Positions 13,557-20,687 of a DNA stretch of 36,661 nucleotides are shown here, one piece after another (position 1 is the stretch's first letter; each line of letters starts with the position of its first letter). Origin of the DNA: Escherichia phage HK75. The DNA is taken from the sequence record HM173637; one strand, given 5' to 3'. The notes beneath the pieces are model-generated. The model was given only the letters and a program-made list of their open reading frames with translations. It searched no databases and was not told the origin of the DNA. The translations under genes were made by a program, and so were the position numbers.

Positions 13557-13781
13557 ATGTATACAGTTGGGTTTGGTTGGATCTTCGTCGGTATTTTTAT
13601 TGGGTTAATTCTCTGGTTTTTCATCAACCGCGCCAGCGTCAGAGCGAACAGGCAGGTTGAATTACTTGAGTCTATCGACCAGAAATTATCAAAAATAGTA
13701 GATCCAAACTTCGAGGCAAATAACAAAGACCAGTCGAAAGAAAACTACCTTGAAGAAGCAAGGAAAAAAGCTGGGCTTTGA
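13557..13781 (+). CDS. Small single-pass membrane protein (moron B), paralog of moron A
   Basis: 74 aa; AAGGAG RBS at 13545-13550; TM helix then NRASVRANRQVELLESI motif shared with the 8203-8391 protein; own terminator. Confidence 0.5.
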   Translation: MYTVGFGWIFVGIFIGLILWFFINRASVRANRQVELLESIDQKLSKIVDPNFEANNKDQSKENYLEEARKKAGL

Positions 13782-13796
13782 GAGCGTAAATTAACA

Positions 13797-13820
13797 AACC
13801 ACCTACGGGTGGTTTTTTTT
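13797..13820 (+). terminator. Intrinsic terminator after moron B
   Basis: AACCACC-tacg-GGTGGTT followed by TTTTTT. Confidence 0.6.
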
Positions 13821-14440: not shown

Positions 14441-14459
14441 ATAACTAACCTTTTTTCTG

Positions 14460-14481
14460 GCCACCTTCGGGTGGCTTTTTT
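14460..14481 (+). terminator. Hairpin plus T-run between I and J
   Basis: GCCACC-ttcg-GGTGGC followed by TTTTTT. Confidence 0.5.
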
Positions 14482-14492
14482 ATGGGCGCAAT

Positions 14493-17400
14493 ATGGCTAC
14501 AGATAAAGTGTTAAAAGGCCGCAAGGGCGGCAGCTCAAGTTCCCGAACCCCTACCGAACAGCCTGATGATCTGCAATCTGTAGCGAAGGCAAAGATCCTC
14601 GTTGCGCTTGGGGAAGGGGAGTTTGCTGGACAGCTCACCGGGAAGGATATCTACCTGGACGGAACAGCGCTGGAGAATGCTGACGGCTCCCAAAACTTCA
14701 GCGGGGTAACGTGGGAGTTTCGCGCGGGAACGCAGGCGCAAAAATATATTCAGGGTATTCCCGGTACCGAAAACGAGATCAGCGTAGGAACTGAGGTATC
14801 AAGTGCCACAGCCTGGACGCGCACGTTTACCAATACGCAGCTTTCAGCAGTTCGCCTGCGTCTTAAATGGCCCTCGCTTTTCAAACAGGAAGACGACGGC
14901 GATCTGGTGGGTTACTCGGTCAATTATGCGATTGACCTGCAGACGGACGGCGGCACATGGCAGACGGTACTCAATACCAGCGTGACCGGAAAAACGACGT
15001 CTGGTTATGAGCGCAGCCACCGCATCGATTTACCGCAGGCTGGCAGCACCTGGACAATCCGCCTGCGTAAGATTACCTCTGACGCCAACAGCGCGAAGAT
15101 CGGCGACACGATGACGCTGCAGAGCTTCACTGAGGTTATTGACGCCAAGTTACGATATCCAAACACAGCGTTACTCTACATCGAATTCGATTCAAGCCAG
15201 TTTAACGGCTCTATCCCGCAGATCTCCTGCGAGCCCCGCGGCCGTGTTATCCGCGTTCCTGATACCTACGACCCTGAAACCCGCACTTATAGCGGTACAT
15301 GGACCGGTGCGTTTAAGTGGGCATGGACGGATAACCCTGCGTGGATTTTTTACGATCTGGTTGTTTCTGACCGGTTCGGCCTTGGGCACCGTTTGACCGC
15401 TGCGAATATTGATAAATGGACGCTTTATCAGGTTGCTCAGTATTGTGATCAGATGGTACCAGACGGCAAAGGGGGCAACGGTACAGAACCACGCTATACC
15501 TGCAACGTGTACATTCAGGACCGGAACGACGCCTACACAGTCCTACGTGATTTTGCCGCTATCTTCCGTGGCATGACCTACTGGGGCGGGGATCAGATTG
15601 TGGCCCTGGCTGACATGCCGCGCGATGTTGATTACAGCTATACGCGCGCTAACGTTGTTGGCGGTCGCTTCACCTATTCGAGCAGCACCACGAAAAGCCG
15701 CTACACCACAGCGCTGGTTTCATGGTCAGACCCGGGTAACGCTTATGCCGACGCGATGGAGCCGGTATTTGAGCAGGCGCTGGTGGCGCGGTACGGCTTC
15801 AATCAGCTGGAAATGACAGCCATCGGCTGCACCAGGCAGTCAGAGGCGAACCGAAAGGGGCGCTGGGGTATTCTCACCAATAACAAGGATCGCGTTGTTT
15901 CGTTTGATGTCGGGCTGGACGGAAACATTCCGCAGCCTGGCTACATCATCGCCGTGGCAGACGAGCTGCTTTCCGGAAAGGTTATGGGCGGCCGCATCAG
16001 CGCCGTTAACGGTCGCGTTATCAAACTTGACCGCGTAGCTGATGCAGCACCAGGTGATCGCCTTATTCTCAACCTTCCCTCCGGAGCGTCGCAGAGCAGG
16101 ACCATTCAGGCCGTGAACGGGGAATCAGTCACAGTCACCACGGCATACAGTGAGACGCCACAGGCCGAAGCTGTTTGGGTGGTTGAATCTGACGAGCTCT
16201 ACGCGCAGCAGTATCGAGTTGTCAGCGTTTCCGATAACGGGGATGGCACTTTCTCAATCACCGGCGCATGGCACGACCCGGATAAATATGCCCGTATCGA
16301 TACCGGAGCCATCATTGACCAGCGGCCGGTGAGCGTGATTCCGCCGGGTAACCAGTCGCCGCCTGCGAACATCGTGATCAGCTCGTTTTCCGTGGTTCAG
16401 CAAAATATCAGCGTCGAAACAATGCGCGTGAGCTGGGACCAGGCGCAGAACGCTATCGCCTATGAAGCGCAATGGCGCCGCAACGACGGGAACTGGGTTA
16501 ACGTGCCGCGCACCTCCACCACGTCATTCGACGTCCCGGGGATTTATGCCGGGCGCTACCTGGTGCGGGTGCGCGCAATCAATGCCGCAGAAATTTCATC
16601 CGGATGGGGCTATTCAGAAGAGAAAACGCTGACGGGTAAAGTGGGCAATCCACCTAAGCCGGTTGGCTTCATCGCTTCTGAAAATGTGGTTTTCGGCATC
16701 GAGCTGAACTGGGGATTCCCGGCGAATACCGACGACACGCTGAAGACGGAAATTCAGTACAGCCTGACCGGTACTGAAGACGATGCCATGCTGCTGGCCG
16801 ATGTGCCTTACCCGCAGCGCAAATATCAGCAGATGGGCCTTAAGGCTGGGCAGATTTTCTGGTACCGCGCGCAGCTGGTTGACCGCAGCGGTAACGAGTC
16901 AGGTTATACCGGCTGGGTTCGTGGGCAGGCCAGTATCGATGTTTCTGACATCACAGATGTGATCCTTGAAGACATCAAAGGGTCTGAGACGTTCAAAGAC
17001 CTGATCGAGAACGCTGTGGACAGCAATGAAAAAATTGCTGGCATGGCTGACGACATCAAACAGGCCAACGATGAACTTGAACTCCAGGCGCAGGAAATCG
17101 CAAAAAACGCGCAGGACATCGGGCAGGTTCAGACCAGCGTTAATGAGCTTTCTAGCACGGTCGGTGATGTGTCGTCTTCTCTCTCAGATCTTGAGCAGAC
17201 TGTTGCGACTGCTGATACCGCACTGGGCCAGCGAATCGACAGCATCAGCGTGTCTATGGACGGCATGACGGGCGGGGTGAAGAACTCTGCTATCGCAATT
17301 ATCCAGAACGGGCTGGCACAAGTGGCTACGCGTAAATCGTTGTCAGCTTCGGTCGCAGGGAACAGTGCGCAGCTGGATCGTATTGATGAGGTAATCGTTA

Positions 17401-18044
17401 ACGAGAAGGAGGCAACGGCGCGTTCTCTGCTGAGCCTGCAGACGGATGTCAACGGCAACAAGGCATCCATAAACAGCCTGAATCAGACGTTCTCCGACTA
17501 TCAGCAGGCTACGGCCACGCAGATAAACGGCATTACGGCGACCGTGAACGGGCATACCTCCGCCATCACCACTAACGCTCAGGCGATAGCCAACGTTAAT
17601 GGCGACCTCAGCGCGATGTACAACATCAAGGTTGGCGTTTCCAGCAACGGTCAGTATTACGCCGCGGGGATGGGTATCGGCGTGGAGAATACGCCATCCG
17701 GCATGCAGTCGCAGGTTATCTTCCTGGCTGATCGCTTCGCCGTCACCACGGCAGCCGGAAATAGCGTGGCTTTGCCGTTTGTGATCCAGAATGGACAGAC
17801 ATTCATCCGGGCCAGCTTCATCCAGGACGGCACCATTGAGAACGCCAAAATCGGCAACTATATCCAGTCCAACAACTATGCAGCTGGTTCTGCTGGCTGG
17901 AAGCTTGATAAAGGGGGGACGTTTGAGAACTACGGTTCGACTGCTGGTGAGGGAGCCATGAAACTGACAAATCAGACGATCAGCGTCAAAGATGGCAGTA
18001 ATGTTCTTAGGGTGCAGGTTGGCCGATTAACGGGAGTATTCTGA
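14493..18044 (+). CDS. J: Host specificity / central tail fibre protein J
   Basis: 1183 aa, lambda J position and size, fibronectin-III-like central region, variable C-terminus. Confidence 0.85.
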   Translation: MATDKVLKGRKGGSSSSRTPTEQPDDLQSVAKAKILVALGEGEFAGQLTGKDIYLDGTALENADGSQNFSGVTWEFRAGTQAQKYIQGIPGTENEISVGTEVSSATAWTRTFTNTQLSAVRLRLKWPSLFKQEDDGDLVGYSVNYAIDLQTDGGTWQTVLNTSVTGKTTSGYERSHRIDLPQAGSTWTIRLRKITSDANSAKIGDTMTLQSFTEVIDAKLRYPNTALLYIEFDSSQFNGSIPQISCEPRGRVIRVPDTYDPETRTYSGTWTGAFKWAWTDNPAWIFYDLVVSDRFGLGHRLTAANIDKWTLYQVAQYCDQMVPDGKGGNGTEPRYTCNVYIQDRNDAYTVLRDFAAIFRGMTYWGGDQIVALADMPRDVDYSYTRANVVGGRFTYSSSTTKSRYTTALVSWSDPGNAYADAMEPVFEQALVARYGFNQLEMTAIGCTRQSEANRKGRWGILTNNKDRVVSFDVGLDGNIPQPGYIIAVADELLSGKVMGGRISAVNGRVIKLDRVADAAPGDRLILNLPSGASQSRTIQAVNGESVTVTTAYSETPQAEAVWVVESDELYAQQYRVVSVSDNGDGTFSITGAWHDPDKYARIDTGAIIDQRPVSVIPPGNQSPPANIVISSFSVVQQNISVETMRVSWDQAQNAIAYEAQWRRNDGNWVNVPRTSTTSFDVPGIYAGRYLVRVRAINAAEISSGWGYSEEKTLTGKVGNPPKPVGFIASENVVFGIELNWGFPANTDDTLKTEIQYSLTGTEDDAMLLADVPYPQRKYQQMGLKAGQIFWYRAQLVDRSGNESGYTGWVRGQASIDVSDITDVILEDIKGSETFKDLIENAVDSNEKIAGMADDIKQANDELELQAQEIAKNAQDIGQVQTSVNELSSTVGDVSSSLSDLEQTVATADTALGQRIDSISVSMDGMTGGVKNSAIAIIQNGLAQVATRKSLSASVAGNSAQLDRIDEVIVNEKEATARSLLSLQTDVNGNKASINSLNQTFSDYQQATATQINGITATVNGHTSAITTNAQAIANVNGDLSAMYNIKVGVSSNGQYYAAGMGIGVENTPSGMQSQVIFLADRFAVTTAAGNSVALPFVIQNGQTFIRASFIQDGTIENAKIGNYIQSNNYAAGSAGWKLDKGGTFENYGSTAGEGAMKLTNQTISVKDGSNVLRVQVGRLTGVF

Positions 18045-18045
18045 A

Positions 18046-18348
18046 ATGGCTTATGGAATACAGACCTGGGATGCTTCAGGAAAACCCAACAACTATGGCA
18101 TCAAACCCGTTTCCGTCGTTGGGCGAATACAGCTGGCTGCCGGGCAAACCTCCGGCAGCTGGTCTTTTACGGTGCCCTCAGGAATGAAAGTTGGTTTTGT
18201 TCTTTCACTTGATGAAGGAGGTAACAGCGTAGGGCGGCGCATTGTCGCGTCAGGGAGCACAATAACCGTAAGCGCTGCATCTTCTGTAGGTCTGGGTAAT
18301 TATCCGGCCTCAAAGTGTGAAGTGGTCGTTTTCATGGAGAAAGCATAA
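18046..18348 (+). CDS. Hypothetical protein downstream of J
   Basis: 100-aa ORF coupled to the J stop; shares a WD-x-SGK motif with the next ORF. Confidence 0.4.
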   Translation: MAYGIQTWDASGKPNNYGIKPVSVVGRIQLAAGQTSGSWSFTVPSGMKVGFVLSLDEGGNSVGRRIVASGSTITVSAASSVGLGNYPASKCEVVVFMEKA

Positions 18349-18986
18349 TGGCCGAATTTGGCGCGATGATATTAATGGACAACGGGAACCCATTTGTAAC
18401 GCCCCAGTCAACGCCTTTTTGTCTTTACGGCAAGTACACTTTCAACTCCTCTGCTAATGGCAGTTCGCAGCAGGTTACTCAGAATATTGCATTAAATGCT
18501 GACTACCCTGTGATGGTATTTATCAGGACCACAAATACCGCCCAGCCCACGCCAGTAATATCTTACCGGAACGGCGGGAATATATATGTCGCGGGGGTTA
18601 ATCCCTATAACCAGAGCTTCACGTTAACCGCATATATTTTTGCCATATTTCCCCAGACGTTACCGAAATGGGGGATGGCCATCTGGGATTCGAGCGGGAA
18701 GCTGGTACTCACTAATGAGTCCCGCGTGCTGTCAGACTTGCAGACAATCGGAACGCCTGGAGCAAACGGCGGGATTAACATTGACCAGACGCTTGATGGT
18801 TCATGGGCAGTGGCTCCATCAAGGCTGGGGCAAGTGAACAGAAACGACGCTTACTCATCTTGTAGGTATTCAGGCACAAGTACAAGAATAAACGCCGGTA
18901 CAGCCGCAAATACACCTGGCGGTGCTGGAGGGGTGATAAATAATGGAATTATCCTGACAGCAATTAAAACAGACGCCTATGATTGA
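18348..18986 (+). CDS. Hypothetical protein with internal repeat of the preceding ORF's domain
   Basis: 212 aa, start overlaps the preceding stop; contains two motif copies (MILMDNGNP and MAIWDSSGK). Confidence 0.4.
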   Translation: MAEFGAMILMDNGNPFVTPQSTPFCLYGKYTFNSSANGSSQQVTQNIALNADYPVMVFIRTTNTAQPTPVISYRNGGNIYVAGVNPYNQSFTLTAYIFAIFPQTLPKWGMAIWDSSGKLVLTNESRVLSDLQTIGTPGANGGINIDQTLDGSWAVAPSRLGQVNRNDAYSSCRYSGTSTRINAGTAANTPGGAGGVINNGIILTAIKTDAYD

Positions 18987-19093
18987 TTGTTTTGAGCGAT
19001 CAATAACAAATAATTTATCTATCTAATCAATTATACCCATCGATTATGTATTGGTATCTTCGAAGCTACTGAATACCTCTGGATACTATCAAA

Positions 19094-19327
19094 ATGAAAA
19101 GGCTAATTATCTGCATAGCGGGCGCTTTAATGCTGTCTGGTTGCGCTGGTGTACTTGAGAAACAGAAACCGATTTGCAGCGGCACGGCATATATGGGTGG
19201 CCATGAGAATACCGTTATGATTTACGCCGTTCGAAAGCAAAACAACCAGACGCAATACCGGGCCGGATATCCCTTTAACTGGCGCTGGGTAAGTGCGAAC
19301 ACATTCACAAGCACGACATGTAAATAA
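19094..19327 (+). CDS. Small lipoprotein (moron), possible Cor-like superinfection exclusion protein
   Basis: 77 aa; signal peptide with lipobox LSGC (Cys17); preceded by a 107-bp AT-rich spacer and followed by a hairpin plus T-run. Confidence 0.5.
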   Translation: MKRLIICIAGALMLSGCAGVLEKQKPICSGTAYMGGHENTVMIYAVRKQNNQTQYRAGYPFNWRWVSANTFTSTTCK

Positions 19328-19346
19328 CTCATGATTTTCAATGCAA

Positions 19347-19372
19347 ACCTCGCCTCGGCGGGGTTTTTTATT
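19347..19372 (+). terminator. Terminator-like hairpin after the lipoprotein gene
   Basis: GC-rich imperfect stem (CCTCGCC...GGCGGGG) followed by TTTTTTATT. Confidence 0.35.
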
Positions 19373-19385
19373 GCCTGGAGAAAAT

Positions 19386-20687
19386 ATGCTTTATAACACT
19401 GGAACCATCGCCATTAACGGAAACAGCGCCACCGGCACGGGCACGAACTGGACGGCACCCGCCAGCCAGGTTCGCGCTGGCCAGACGATTATCGTGATGT
19501 CTAACCCGGTGCAGCTGTTTCAGATTTCATCCGTGAACAGCGCCACGTCAATGACGGTTACTCCAGCTGCTTCCCCTGCGCTGAGCGGCCAGAAGTACGG
19601 CATTCTGGTATCAGACAATATCTCGGTCGACGGACTGGCACAGGCGATGTCTCAGCTCATCAAAGAGTATGACGAGAATATTGGCGCATGGGAGACGTTC
19701 GCTACTACCTCAGCAAACCAGAGCATCACGGTAACTATAAACGGCACCCCCGTGACTATCCCCGGCATCGGTAAGCTGGCACAGAAAGGAACCAACGGTG
19801 CTCTCCCGATTGACCAGGGCGGGACTGGTGCAACTAACGCTGCAGACGTTCGCACAAACCTCAGTTTGGGAAGTAGCGCTTTATTGGATGCTCAAAGTTC
19901 CTGGAGTGATTCCGGTCAAAAGAAAGTTCTAACTGTGGGGGCTTTTGGTCTGGGGCGTGAAATTACTGAATCAGTTCCACTTAATACTATGAGCGAGTAC
20001 TACCCCTCATCGTTTATATGGTCGGTAGAGGACGCCAGCTACATGGGTGTCTCAGGAAGTCAGAACATTACCTCTATCGTAATAGCTCGCGGAGGAAGAC
20101 CAACTCGCATTCATCAAATATACACGTTAGGGAGGACTTTCTTCAGTTACCGAACACCTACAGGGTGGCTGTATCAGGAAGCCTACACAACGGGGAACAC
20201 CACTAAGGCGAGCGATGGCACGCTAAAAGCGGCTTCACCAGTTGCCCGCATAGTAACGAGTCGCGATGCATGCCAGCGCGCTGACGTAGCAGAAGATGGT
20301 TTCTCCTGGTGCGGCTGCGGGACAGCAAACGCAGAGGCGGAGGGCATAACCCTTTCTCGCCTTGAGGCGGGTGTTTACCAGCTGACAGGTTCAGCAGGCC
20401 TGGCATCGGAGGGATGGCAACTACTGCCCCCAATGGACCCTGGCGGCATGGGAGAACTGGGCGTGGTTGAGGCAGAGAAAACCGATAACGGCGAACTGAC
20501 AATCCGTCTGTTTAAGCGCAAATACATGCTGGGCGATGAAGGTGAGATTGTAAAAACAAAAGGGGAGCCTATCGACGTACCGGCTAACAGCTGGATTGAT
20601 GTTCGGCTGGACATGCCTGAAAACAGCGTCTGGAATCAGCGCCAGAAAGAGGCGATGGCAAAAGAGACTCAGGAACCTGCTTCGTAA
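19386..20687 (+). CDS. Tail fibre protein
   Basis: 434 aa from the ATG at 19386 (GGAG RBS at 19377-19380); Gly/Thr/Ser-rich, N-terminus typical of fibre anchoring domains; last structural gene before attP. Confidence 0.55.
   Translation: MLYNTGTIAINGNSATGTGTNWTAPASQVRAGQTIIVMSNPVQLFQISSVNSATSMTVTPAASPALSGQKYGILVSDNISVDGLAQAMSQLIKEYDENIGAWETFATTSANQSITVTINGTPVTIPGIGKLAQKGTNGALPIDQGGTGATNAADVRTNLSLGSSALLDAQSSWSDSGQKKVLTVGAFGLGREITESVPLNTMSEYYPSSFIWSVEDASYMGVSGSQNITSIVIARGGRPTRIHQIYTLGRTFFSYRTPTGWLYQEAYTTGNTTKASDGTLKAASPVARIVTSRDACQRADVAEDGFSWCGCGTANAEAEGITLSRLEAGVYQLTGSAGLASEGWQLLPPMDPGGMGELGVVEAEKTDNGELTIRLFKRKYMLGDEGEIVKTKGEPIDVPANSWIDVRLDMPENSVWNQRQKEAMAKETQEPAS

Follow-up and report, generated by a model that had tools for sequence, protein, structure and literature searches.

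Two small genes that follow J in an HK022-like phage as candidates for a split, three-module FhuA adhesin

FhuA (TonA) is the classic receptor of phages T1, phi80 and HK022, yet databases label as membrane proteins the products of two small genes that follow the J gene in such phages. Our literature search did not find an experimental identification of the FhuA-binding phage protein for T1, phi80 or HK022, and the locus therefore raises the question of what these two genes contribute to the tail tip. We addressed it in the genome sequence of Escherichia phage HK75 (record HM173637), whose whole analysed stretch of 36,661 nucleotides is referred to as the window. The original prediction, made from the letters of this DNA, had placed ORFs of 100 and 212 aa, here called p100 and p212, directly after J, and their coordinates were verified together with those of the neighbouring genes:

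14493..18044, plus strand: J-like central tail fibre or tip attachment protein of 1183 aa, HK022 gp24 (Pfam FNIII-A_GpJ, E 2e-50; Phage_Tail_Tip, E 1e-47; Phage-tail_3, E 1.5e-13)
18046..18348, plus strand: p100, 100 aa (HK022 gp25; T1 gp32; phi80 gp22), a single beta-sandwich module and the proposed adhesin module 1
18348..18986, plus strand: p212, 212 aa (HK022 gp26; T1 gp31; phi80 gp23), two modules forming the proposed FhuA-binding part (modules 2+3)
19094..19327, plus strand: cor, FhuA-blocking superinfection-exclusion lipoprotein, HK022 gp27 (NCBIfam lamb_exclu_cor, E 4e-41; phrog_1119, E 2.4e-37; lipoprotein signal MKRLIICIAGALMLSGC)
19386..20687, plus strand: side tail fibre gene, with the start of the HK022_28 annotation (Pfam Phage_tail_C_2, E 2.4e-31; phrog_1591, E 2.7e-141)

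The three first genes are tightly packed on the same strand, with 1 nt between J and p100 and a 1-nt overlap (TAATG) between p100 and p212, and they are followed in order by cor, the side tail fibre gene and the integrase. At the nucleotide level the region matches phage HK022 and its relatives with 98.8% identity, and a prophage of E. coli YPE10 with 100%. The window is an HK022-like prophage, and the two ORFs are therefore HK022 gp25 and gp26, which are annotated in HK022 as hypothetical proteins (HK022_25 and HK022_26) next to a J homologue described as a minor tail protein similar to lambda gpJ. Both belong over their full length to known families, p100 to phrog_557 (E 2.4e-36) and p212 to phrog_425 (E 7.6e-75); searches of Pfam, NCBIfam and PDB sequences returned no match for either. 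p100 is 100% identical to phi80 gp22, and p212 shares 80% of its residues with phi80 gp23 and about 50% with T1 gp31. The HK022-type p212 (212 aa) lacks 12 residues that follow 'LGQ' in the phi80-type and most other relatives (224 aa), and its identity to the phi80-like protein P0004 is 88-96% over residues 1-161 and 57% over residues 162-212. As judged from these alignments, distal module 3 (window 18831-18860, p212 residues ~162-171, plus the rest of the distal C-module) may be a hot spot of recombination or diversification. Upstream, between the K-like and I-like tail genes (window 13557-13815), there is an ORF of 74 aa whose N-terminal half is hydrophobic, and a bidirectional terminator-like hairpin follows it. 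Another terminator-like hairpin is found just 5' of J (window 14459-14476), and the small moron genes of HK022 in this area are different ones (gp22, srb).

The literature already connects this locus with receptor choice. The cassette has been described as confined to the FhuA-dependent phages T1, HK022, N15, ES18 and phi80 (PMC13164509, citing Wietzorrek 2006), HK022 being listed there as FhuA-dependent. The BASEL study proposed dedicated receptor-binding proteins (RBPs) after gpJ, with cognate exclusion proteins and alleles that track the receptor (PMC8594841), and a 2026 preprint likewise found the post-gpJ locus to track receptor type (bioRxiv 10.64898/2026.04.02.716166). Using AlphaFold3, the latter nominated an FhuA RBP with 'accessory proteins' and called the FhuA, BtuB, LptD and YncD RBP families unrelated, its swap experiments being on T-even-like phages only (bioRxiv 10.64898/2026.04.02.716166). 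In a 2025 modelling paper on the Dhillonvirus homologues, the small protein was described as Ig-like and likened to the Ig-like C-terminal domain of lambda J, and the large one, of 23 kDa and 'hand-like', was modelled by AlphaFold-Multimer on the J trimer and on FhuA and favoured as a monomeric FhuA-binding cap (PMC12309495). Our literature search retrieved no experiment placing p100 or p212 in virions or on FhuA, the sole wet-lab hint being an SDS-PAGE band of a distant Pseudomonas phage, and yielded nothing usable on virion proteomics, phage SH6 being devoid of p100 and p212 genes. An adhesin role of the pair has therefore been proposed already, without experiment, and our finding is not new in kind, because both the genes and their probable role are in the literature. 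What we add is the link to a solved adhesin (9rpt), the module architecture and a concrete testable model; the search found no description of the module repeat or of a relationship between split and single-chain proteins.

The starting point for this architecture was a short motif thought to occur three times in the two ORFs, and three copies were indeed located:

18052..18087, plus strand: motif copy 1, YGIQTWDASGKP, p100 residues 3-14, with a predicted beta-bridge W8-P14 and a DASG turn
18357..18392, plus strand: motif copy 2, FGAMILMDNGNP, p212 residues 4-15, opening the N-module; pLDDT 43-54 in the monomer model, yet highly conserved
18669..18704, plus strand: motif copy 3, WGMAIWDSSGKL, p212 residues 108-119, opening the C-module; predicted hairpin E111-113/E119-122, pLDDT 80-86

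The hairpin consensus at the start of each module reads [YWF]-G-x-x-[ITV]-[WL]-D-x-x-G. Copy 1 is among the more conserved regions of the p100 family, with many family-invariant positions, and the N-terminal copy of p212 is the weakest of the three. The motif is kept at all three positions in relatives as remote as ~30-35% identity (T1, Klebsiella, Erwinia and Pantoea phages), and the copies are more alike in distant relatives, as in an Erwinia phage with YGAFLTDQQGNP, YGIAIWDSAGRC and WGIATWDANGVD. A shuffle test of the motif as a regular expression (P(>=1 hit) 6e-4) was set aside as circular and post hoc, because the pattern had been drawn from the same three strings.

Beyond the motif, BLASTP of p100 against p212 gave a sole match of 11 aa (p100 3-13 on p212 108-118, E 0.018 as a single comparison), and the p100-family HMM, run against 1.84 billion proteins, retrieved ~100-aa relatives and Ig-like repeats in giant proteins and no p212-type protein. 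The likeness of p100 and p212 is therefore one of profile and fold, not of plain sequence. Profiles for hhalign were built from database-homologue alignments, the distant ~100-aa relatives of the exhaustive HMM search and homologues of T1, Klebsiella, Erwinia, Pantoea and Dhillonvirus phages, and their scores were compared with a column-shuffle null (mean ~11 +/- 2) that is lenient for all-beta proteins. The p100 profile scored 34.1 with the C-half of p212 (P 1.2e-5, 40 columns) and 23.3 with the N-half (P 1e-3, 78 columns, collinear from residue 1), neither score being reached in 150 shuffles, and the two halves of p212 scored 15.9 with each other (P 0.044, 33 columns), a value reached by 2 of 150 shuffles. 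The idea that p212 arose as a tandem duplication of the 100-aa unit thus holds insofar as the p100 profile recognizes both halves and the folds agree, and falls short in the direct comparison of the halves, whose signal is weak. These profile comparisons support a distant homology of p100 to the p212 halves, a relationship that we take to be real but old. The p100 profile also matched repeats in giant surface proteins (P0233, P0239, P0269, P0284), of which P0284 has Kre9/KNH-like Ig-like domains and P0233 bacterial Ig, cadherin-like and TIG domains; these matches fit an Ig-like sandwich core ('SGSW.F.[IV]P.G') and may be partly composition-driven.

AlphaFold2, supplied with the family alignments, returned confident all-beta models for both proteins (p212 pLDDT 88.6, pTM 0.85; p100 pLDDT 82.9), in which all three motifs form predicted hairpins with a turn of the D-x-x-G type, each opening a beta-sandwich module of ~100 aa. 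The six strands that follow the hairpin in p100 (23-30, 37-40, 47-54, 64-69, 72-77, 91-99) are paralleled in order and spacing by those of the p212 N-module (25-33, 40-48, 55-62, 69-75, 78-85, 92-99). The N-terminal ~20-27 residues of both proteins are strongly conserved, in p212 forming its most conserved stretch outside residues 91-160, yet they are modelled at pLDDT 43-54 in the monomers; the internal p212 hairpin, which is preceded by a module to pack on, reaches pLDDT 80-86. Because the terminal hairpins combine low pLDDT with conservation and the internal one does not share their low pLDDT, the models suggest that the conserved hairpins fold onto the element that precedes them. The closest PDB fold neighbour of p100 is an H-type lectin, a fold that forms trimers, and Foldseek of p100 against viral models gave weak matches only (best E 1e-3). 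Similarity of sequence or fold between the pair and T5 pb5 was sought and not found, and fold likeness to the single-chain RBP structure PDB 9rpt_C, which belongs to a validated RBP, was found at the level of a shared fold.

These data bear on the simplest sceptical reading of the motif, namely that it is a convergent or chance docking peptide carried by unrelated beta-sandwich proteins, with no duplication behind it. Such a reading would accommodate the marginal comparison of the p212 halves, the failure of the p100 HMM to retrieve p212-type proteins and the many low-Z structural matches that small beta-sandwiches yield. It is at odds with a p100 profile that beats all 150 shuffles for both halves, collinearly from the motif on, with the strand order and spacing that the p100 and p212 models share, and with single-chain relatives in which each of the three modules likewise opens with the motif. 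Hence, we regard convergence as improbable.

The single-chain relatives just mentioned are the proteins of the Rtp44 family. Rtp44 is related to the Oekolampad protein (33% identity), and this RBP_Oeko (PDB 9rpt chain C) binds LptDE as a monomer, its tail-proximal part being poorly ordered (bioRxiv 10.1101/2025.07.07.663478). In Rtp44 and eight other members of 311-343 aa the hairpin motif was found three times, at about residues 1, 113 and 207. HMMER revealed matches bridging the two families: PY54 ORF24, of the Rtp44 family (phrog_1265), matched the p212 family phrog_425 (E 1.6e-6, residues 153-255 on positions 34-132), and a Klebsiella p212 homologue matched phrog_1265 (residues 3-132 on positions 123-251), which therefore points to p212 as the equivalent of modules 2 and 3. 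The p212 of this phage gave no match to phrog_1265 at E<=0.1, and thus was not a member of that family by sequence. Landmarks common to the Rtp44 family and p212 include the module 2/3 junction (SVTLDLIIFQQVAPTPGPGINIF versus SFTLTAYIFAIFPQTLPKWGMAIW), a G-x-x-TRI element and a C-terminal ..D.Y end.

Profile-profile comparisons of p212, or of p100 and p212 joined, with the Rtp44 family gave P values from 2.3e-4 to 4e-5. Alone, p212 scored 35.8 (16-223 versus 120-315); when p100 was joined to it in gene order the score rose to 42.8 (P 4e-5) and the alignment ran end to end (2-325 versus 1-315), whereas the swapped order, p212 before p100, scored 35.2 (16-223 versus 120-315) and p212 preceded by shuffled p100 columns scored 35.1 +/- 0.7 (maximum 40.1, n=100). 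p100 by itself resembled module 1 weakly (score 16.8, 2-96 versus 1-111, reached by 2 of 100 shuffles), and an earlier run of this comparison had given no signal. The summed length of the pair (312-330 aa) is in the range of the single chain (311-343 aa), and the stop/start overlap of the two genes sits at the linker between the last strand of module 1 and the hairpin of module 2. There is also a likeness between the N-terminal peptide of p212 and the start of the single-chain RBPs (P 2.4e-4), and the module register is therefore not unambiguous; in our opinion the assignment of p100 to module 1 and of p212 to modules 2 and 3 is likely, albeit not proven.

The main rival to a split adhesin has to be weighed at this point. 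p212 alone could be the FhuA-binding tip, with p100 acting either as an assembly chaperone or adaptor that mounts p212 on J, or as a homotrimeric Ig-like cap forming an alternative tip. The AlphaFold-Multimer work on Dhillonvirus speaks in favour of this arrangement, as it preferred the large protein as the monomeric cap and considered the small one a possible homotrimer or alternative terminus (PMC12309495); the weak likeness of p100 to module 1 and the H-type lectin as its best PDB neighbour can be read in the same way. An autonomous p212 nevertheless leaves aside that the alignment with the single chain is collinear from end to end and that p100 raises the score in the native gene order only, that the pair adds up to the length of the single chain, and that p100 is present in split-type loci and missing from every one of the eight single-chain loci examined. 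Coupling through TAATG is in keeping with synthesis of the two proteins in matched amounts, not 3:1, which it does not by itself show. On balance, we hold it unlikely that p212 works as the tip without p100 as a module.

A split adhesin also agrees with the way in which the genes travel. Phage records with p100 (344) and p212 (348) were retrieved by tblastn in similar numbers and with nearly identical organism breakdowns, next to 432 records of the single-chain type, and the order J-p100-p212 on one strand was found in 84 of 87 loci, J being undetected in two. In Pantoea phage AAS23 tblastn missed the small protein because of its divergence, yet the gene is annotated and its product matches phrog_557. 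Diversity grew little when homologues were sought a second time with the p212 alignment, and a scan of IMG/VR returned close relatives only. Eight records named 'Campylobacter phage' (including MG065688.1 and MG065648.1) carry p100 and p212 homologues, one of them being 93.6% nucleotide-identical to an E. coli Dhillonvirus J gene, and these are probably mislabelled or contaminant coliphage sequences.

The most telling evidence came from two comparisons within genera, SegesCirculi (pair) with TAH8 (single chain) in Webervirus and mckay (pair) with slur06 (single chain) in Dhillonvirus, in which either the pair or the single-chain RBP is found at one and the same position after J. In both comparisons J is nearly identical up to its last ~60 residues, where a tip specific for the adhesin type begins, which in the window corresponds to the following feature:

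17856..18041, plus strand: type-specific J tip, last ~62 aa, '...NYIQSNNY..GW.LDKGGTFENYGS..GEG.MK.TN..ISV.DG...LRVQVGRLTGVF', conserved in split-pair phages (HK022, T1, Klebsiella, Erwinia, Dhillonvirus)

The co-variation of the pair with the J C-terminus, suggested as a check in the original prediction, was thus borne out, the last ~60 residues switching with the RBP type. The tip has independently been flagged as specificity-associated (bioRxiv 10.64898/2026.04.02.716166), and it would be the docking platform for p100 and p212. P0242, a metagenomic protein of 139 aa, passes without a break from the end of J into the beginning of p100 ('...RVQVGRLTGCSDMAYGIQTWDASGKP...') before a frame shift, and it is either an artefact of sequencing or a natural variant with J-p100 read-through.

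Another proposal is that p100 and p212 are membrane or outer-membrane proteins that act with Cor in superinfection exclusion, as the PHROG labels imply and as was proposed for the T1-like phage KanT1. Both genes adjoin cor, and the 2026 KanT1 paper, which found no structural matches for p100- and p212-type proteins, assumed or guessed such a role. The organization of the region speaks against this. No promoter-like or terminator-like site was found between J, p100 and p212, and two signals bracket the following gene:

18954..18983, plus strand: promoter-like site CTGACA-18-TATGAT, 5' of cor and inside the p212 3' end (consensus scan, 10/12 matches; putative function)
19345..19366, plus strand: intrinsic-terminator-like hairpin closing the cor moron (9-bp stem with 5 GC pairs, then a T run)

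With its own promoter-like site and strong terminator, cor (window 18954-19366) looks like a self-contained moron, whereas the pair lies in the late tail operon without a promoter of its own. A mechanically listed 448-aa ORF from 19341 starts inside the cor terminator, the fibre start in HK022 being equivalent to window 19386. Neither p100 nor p212 has a signal peptide, a lipobox or a hydrophobic segment (maximum KD(19) 1.27 and 0.82, respectively), in contrast to Cor (2.09, with a lipobox), which leaves their membrane-protein labels in PHROG unsupported at the level of sequence features. Moreover, Klebsiella and Pantoea phages retain the pair though they lack cor, T1 and mckay carry cor in inverted orientation, the J tip and the pair co-vary, and the fold of the pair matches a validated RBP. 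A membrane or exclusion function was accordingly rejected on operon structure, missing targeting signals and occurrence without cor, and we consider it highly improbable.

Taken together, gene order, co-occurrence, fold similarity, profile alignment and J-tip co-variation, all computed in this work, lead us to favour, as a probable though far from certain reading, that gp25 and gp26 constitute a split, three-module, monomeric FhuA adhesin seated on the type-specific J tip, with Cor as the cognate receptor blocker. p100 would provide module 1 and the halves of p212 modules 2 and 3, the three being diverged beta-sandwich modules, and the assembly would correspond, in split form, to the monomeric LptD-binding RBPs that have three modules in a single chain, the receptor being here FhuA. 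Each hairpin would latch its module onto the preceding element, p100 onto the J tip, the p212 N-module onto p100 and the p212 C-module onto the N-module, and the variable surfaces of p212 at residues ~31-90 and ~161-210 would make direct contact with FhuA, the receptor that the Cor lipoprotein blocks in lysogens and infected cells. Both proteins would be present in the virion with a 1:1 stoichiometry, and it is a possibility that the three modules form a pseudo-threefold cap fitting the C3 J tip. More tentatively, and with a confidence that stays short of even, we propose that gp25 and gp26 form a 1:1 heterodimer equivalent to a naturally split single-chain RBP, with the N-terminal hairpins as inter-module latches. 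The original prediction of a receptor-binding accessory or host-range role pointed in the right direction, but 'accessory' understates what J-tip co-variation, fold and alignment with the Rtp44 family suggest: p212 is probably the primary FhuA receptor-binding protein, and p100 is probably module 1 of this adhesin, encoded by a gene of its own. If the heterodimer, or split, reading is true, the FhuA and LptD tip adhesins of small siphophages and lambdoid phages would be one modular superfamily whose members are swapped along with the final ~60 residues of J, and the model implies that the J tip plus the adhesin gene or genes are the unit of re-targeting.

The systems with which the HK75 pair can be compared differ in their distance from it. 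The T1/N15/phi80/HK022/ES18 cassette (T1 gp32-gp31-cor) has the same genes in the order J, small, large and cor and the same association with FhuA, and nothing essential differs; similarly, the pair is found at the place of the 'bona fide RBP locus' after gpJ of the BASEL phages. T5 pb5 with Llp follows the same logic: FhuA is bound by a monomeric RBP that sits on a trimeric central fibre, and a small lipoprotein, Llp or Cor, closes the receptor from the periplasmic side. In lambda, too, the receptor is recognized at the tip of such a fibre, by the C-terminal receptor-binding domain of J. Rtp44 and RBP_Oeko, on the other hand, hold three modules in one chain of 311-343 aa, whereas the HK75 pair consists of two chains of 100 and 212 aa; they go with a different J tip and with the receptor LptD, whereas the HK022-like pair is associated with FhuA, and because the cassette tracks FhuA in the literature, LptD binding by the HK75 pair is not expected. 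In many cases their gene and J are on opposite strands, whereas FhuA-type adhesin genes follow J. In several LptD-type loci (L087, of phage Rtp, 8753-9918; L088; L089; L093) the adhesin gene lies opposite J and directly 3' of a same-strand exclusion lipoprotein gene, in contrast to FhuA-type loci, with adhesin genes after J and a separate or inverted cor. The three-module single-chain family also occurs in ~76-kb podoviruses, as in Kuravirus SU10 (L095, 1402-2433), where it follows two tail fibre genes, and also in PY54 (L094, 1489-2511), an N15-like phage of Yersinia, directly after J; therefore, the module family of which the HK75 pair would be the split form reaches well beyond the T1-like phages.
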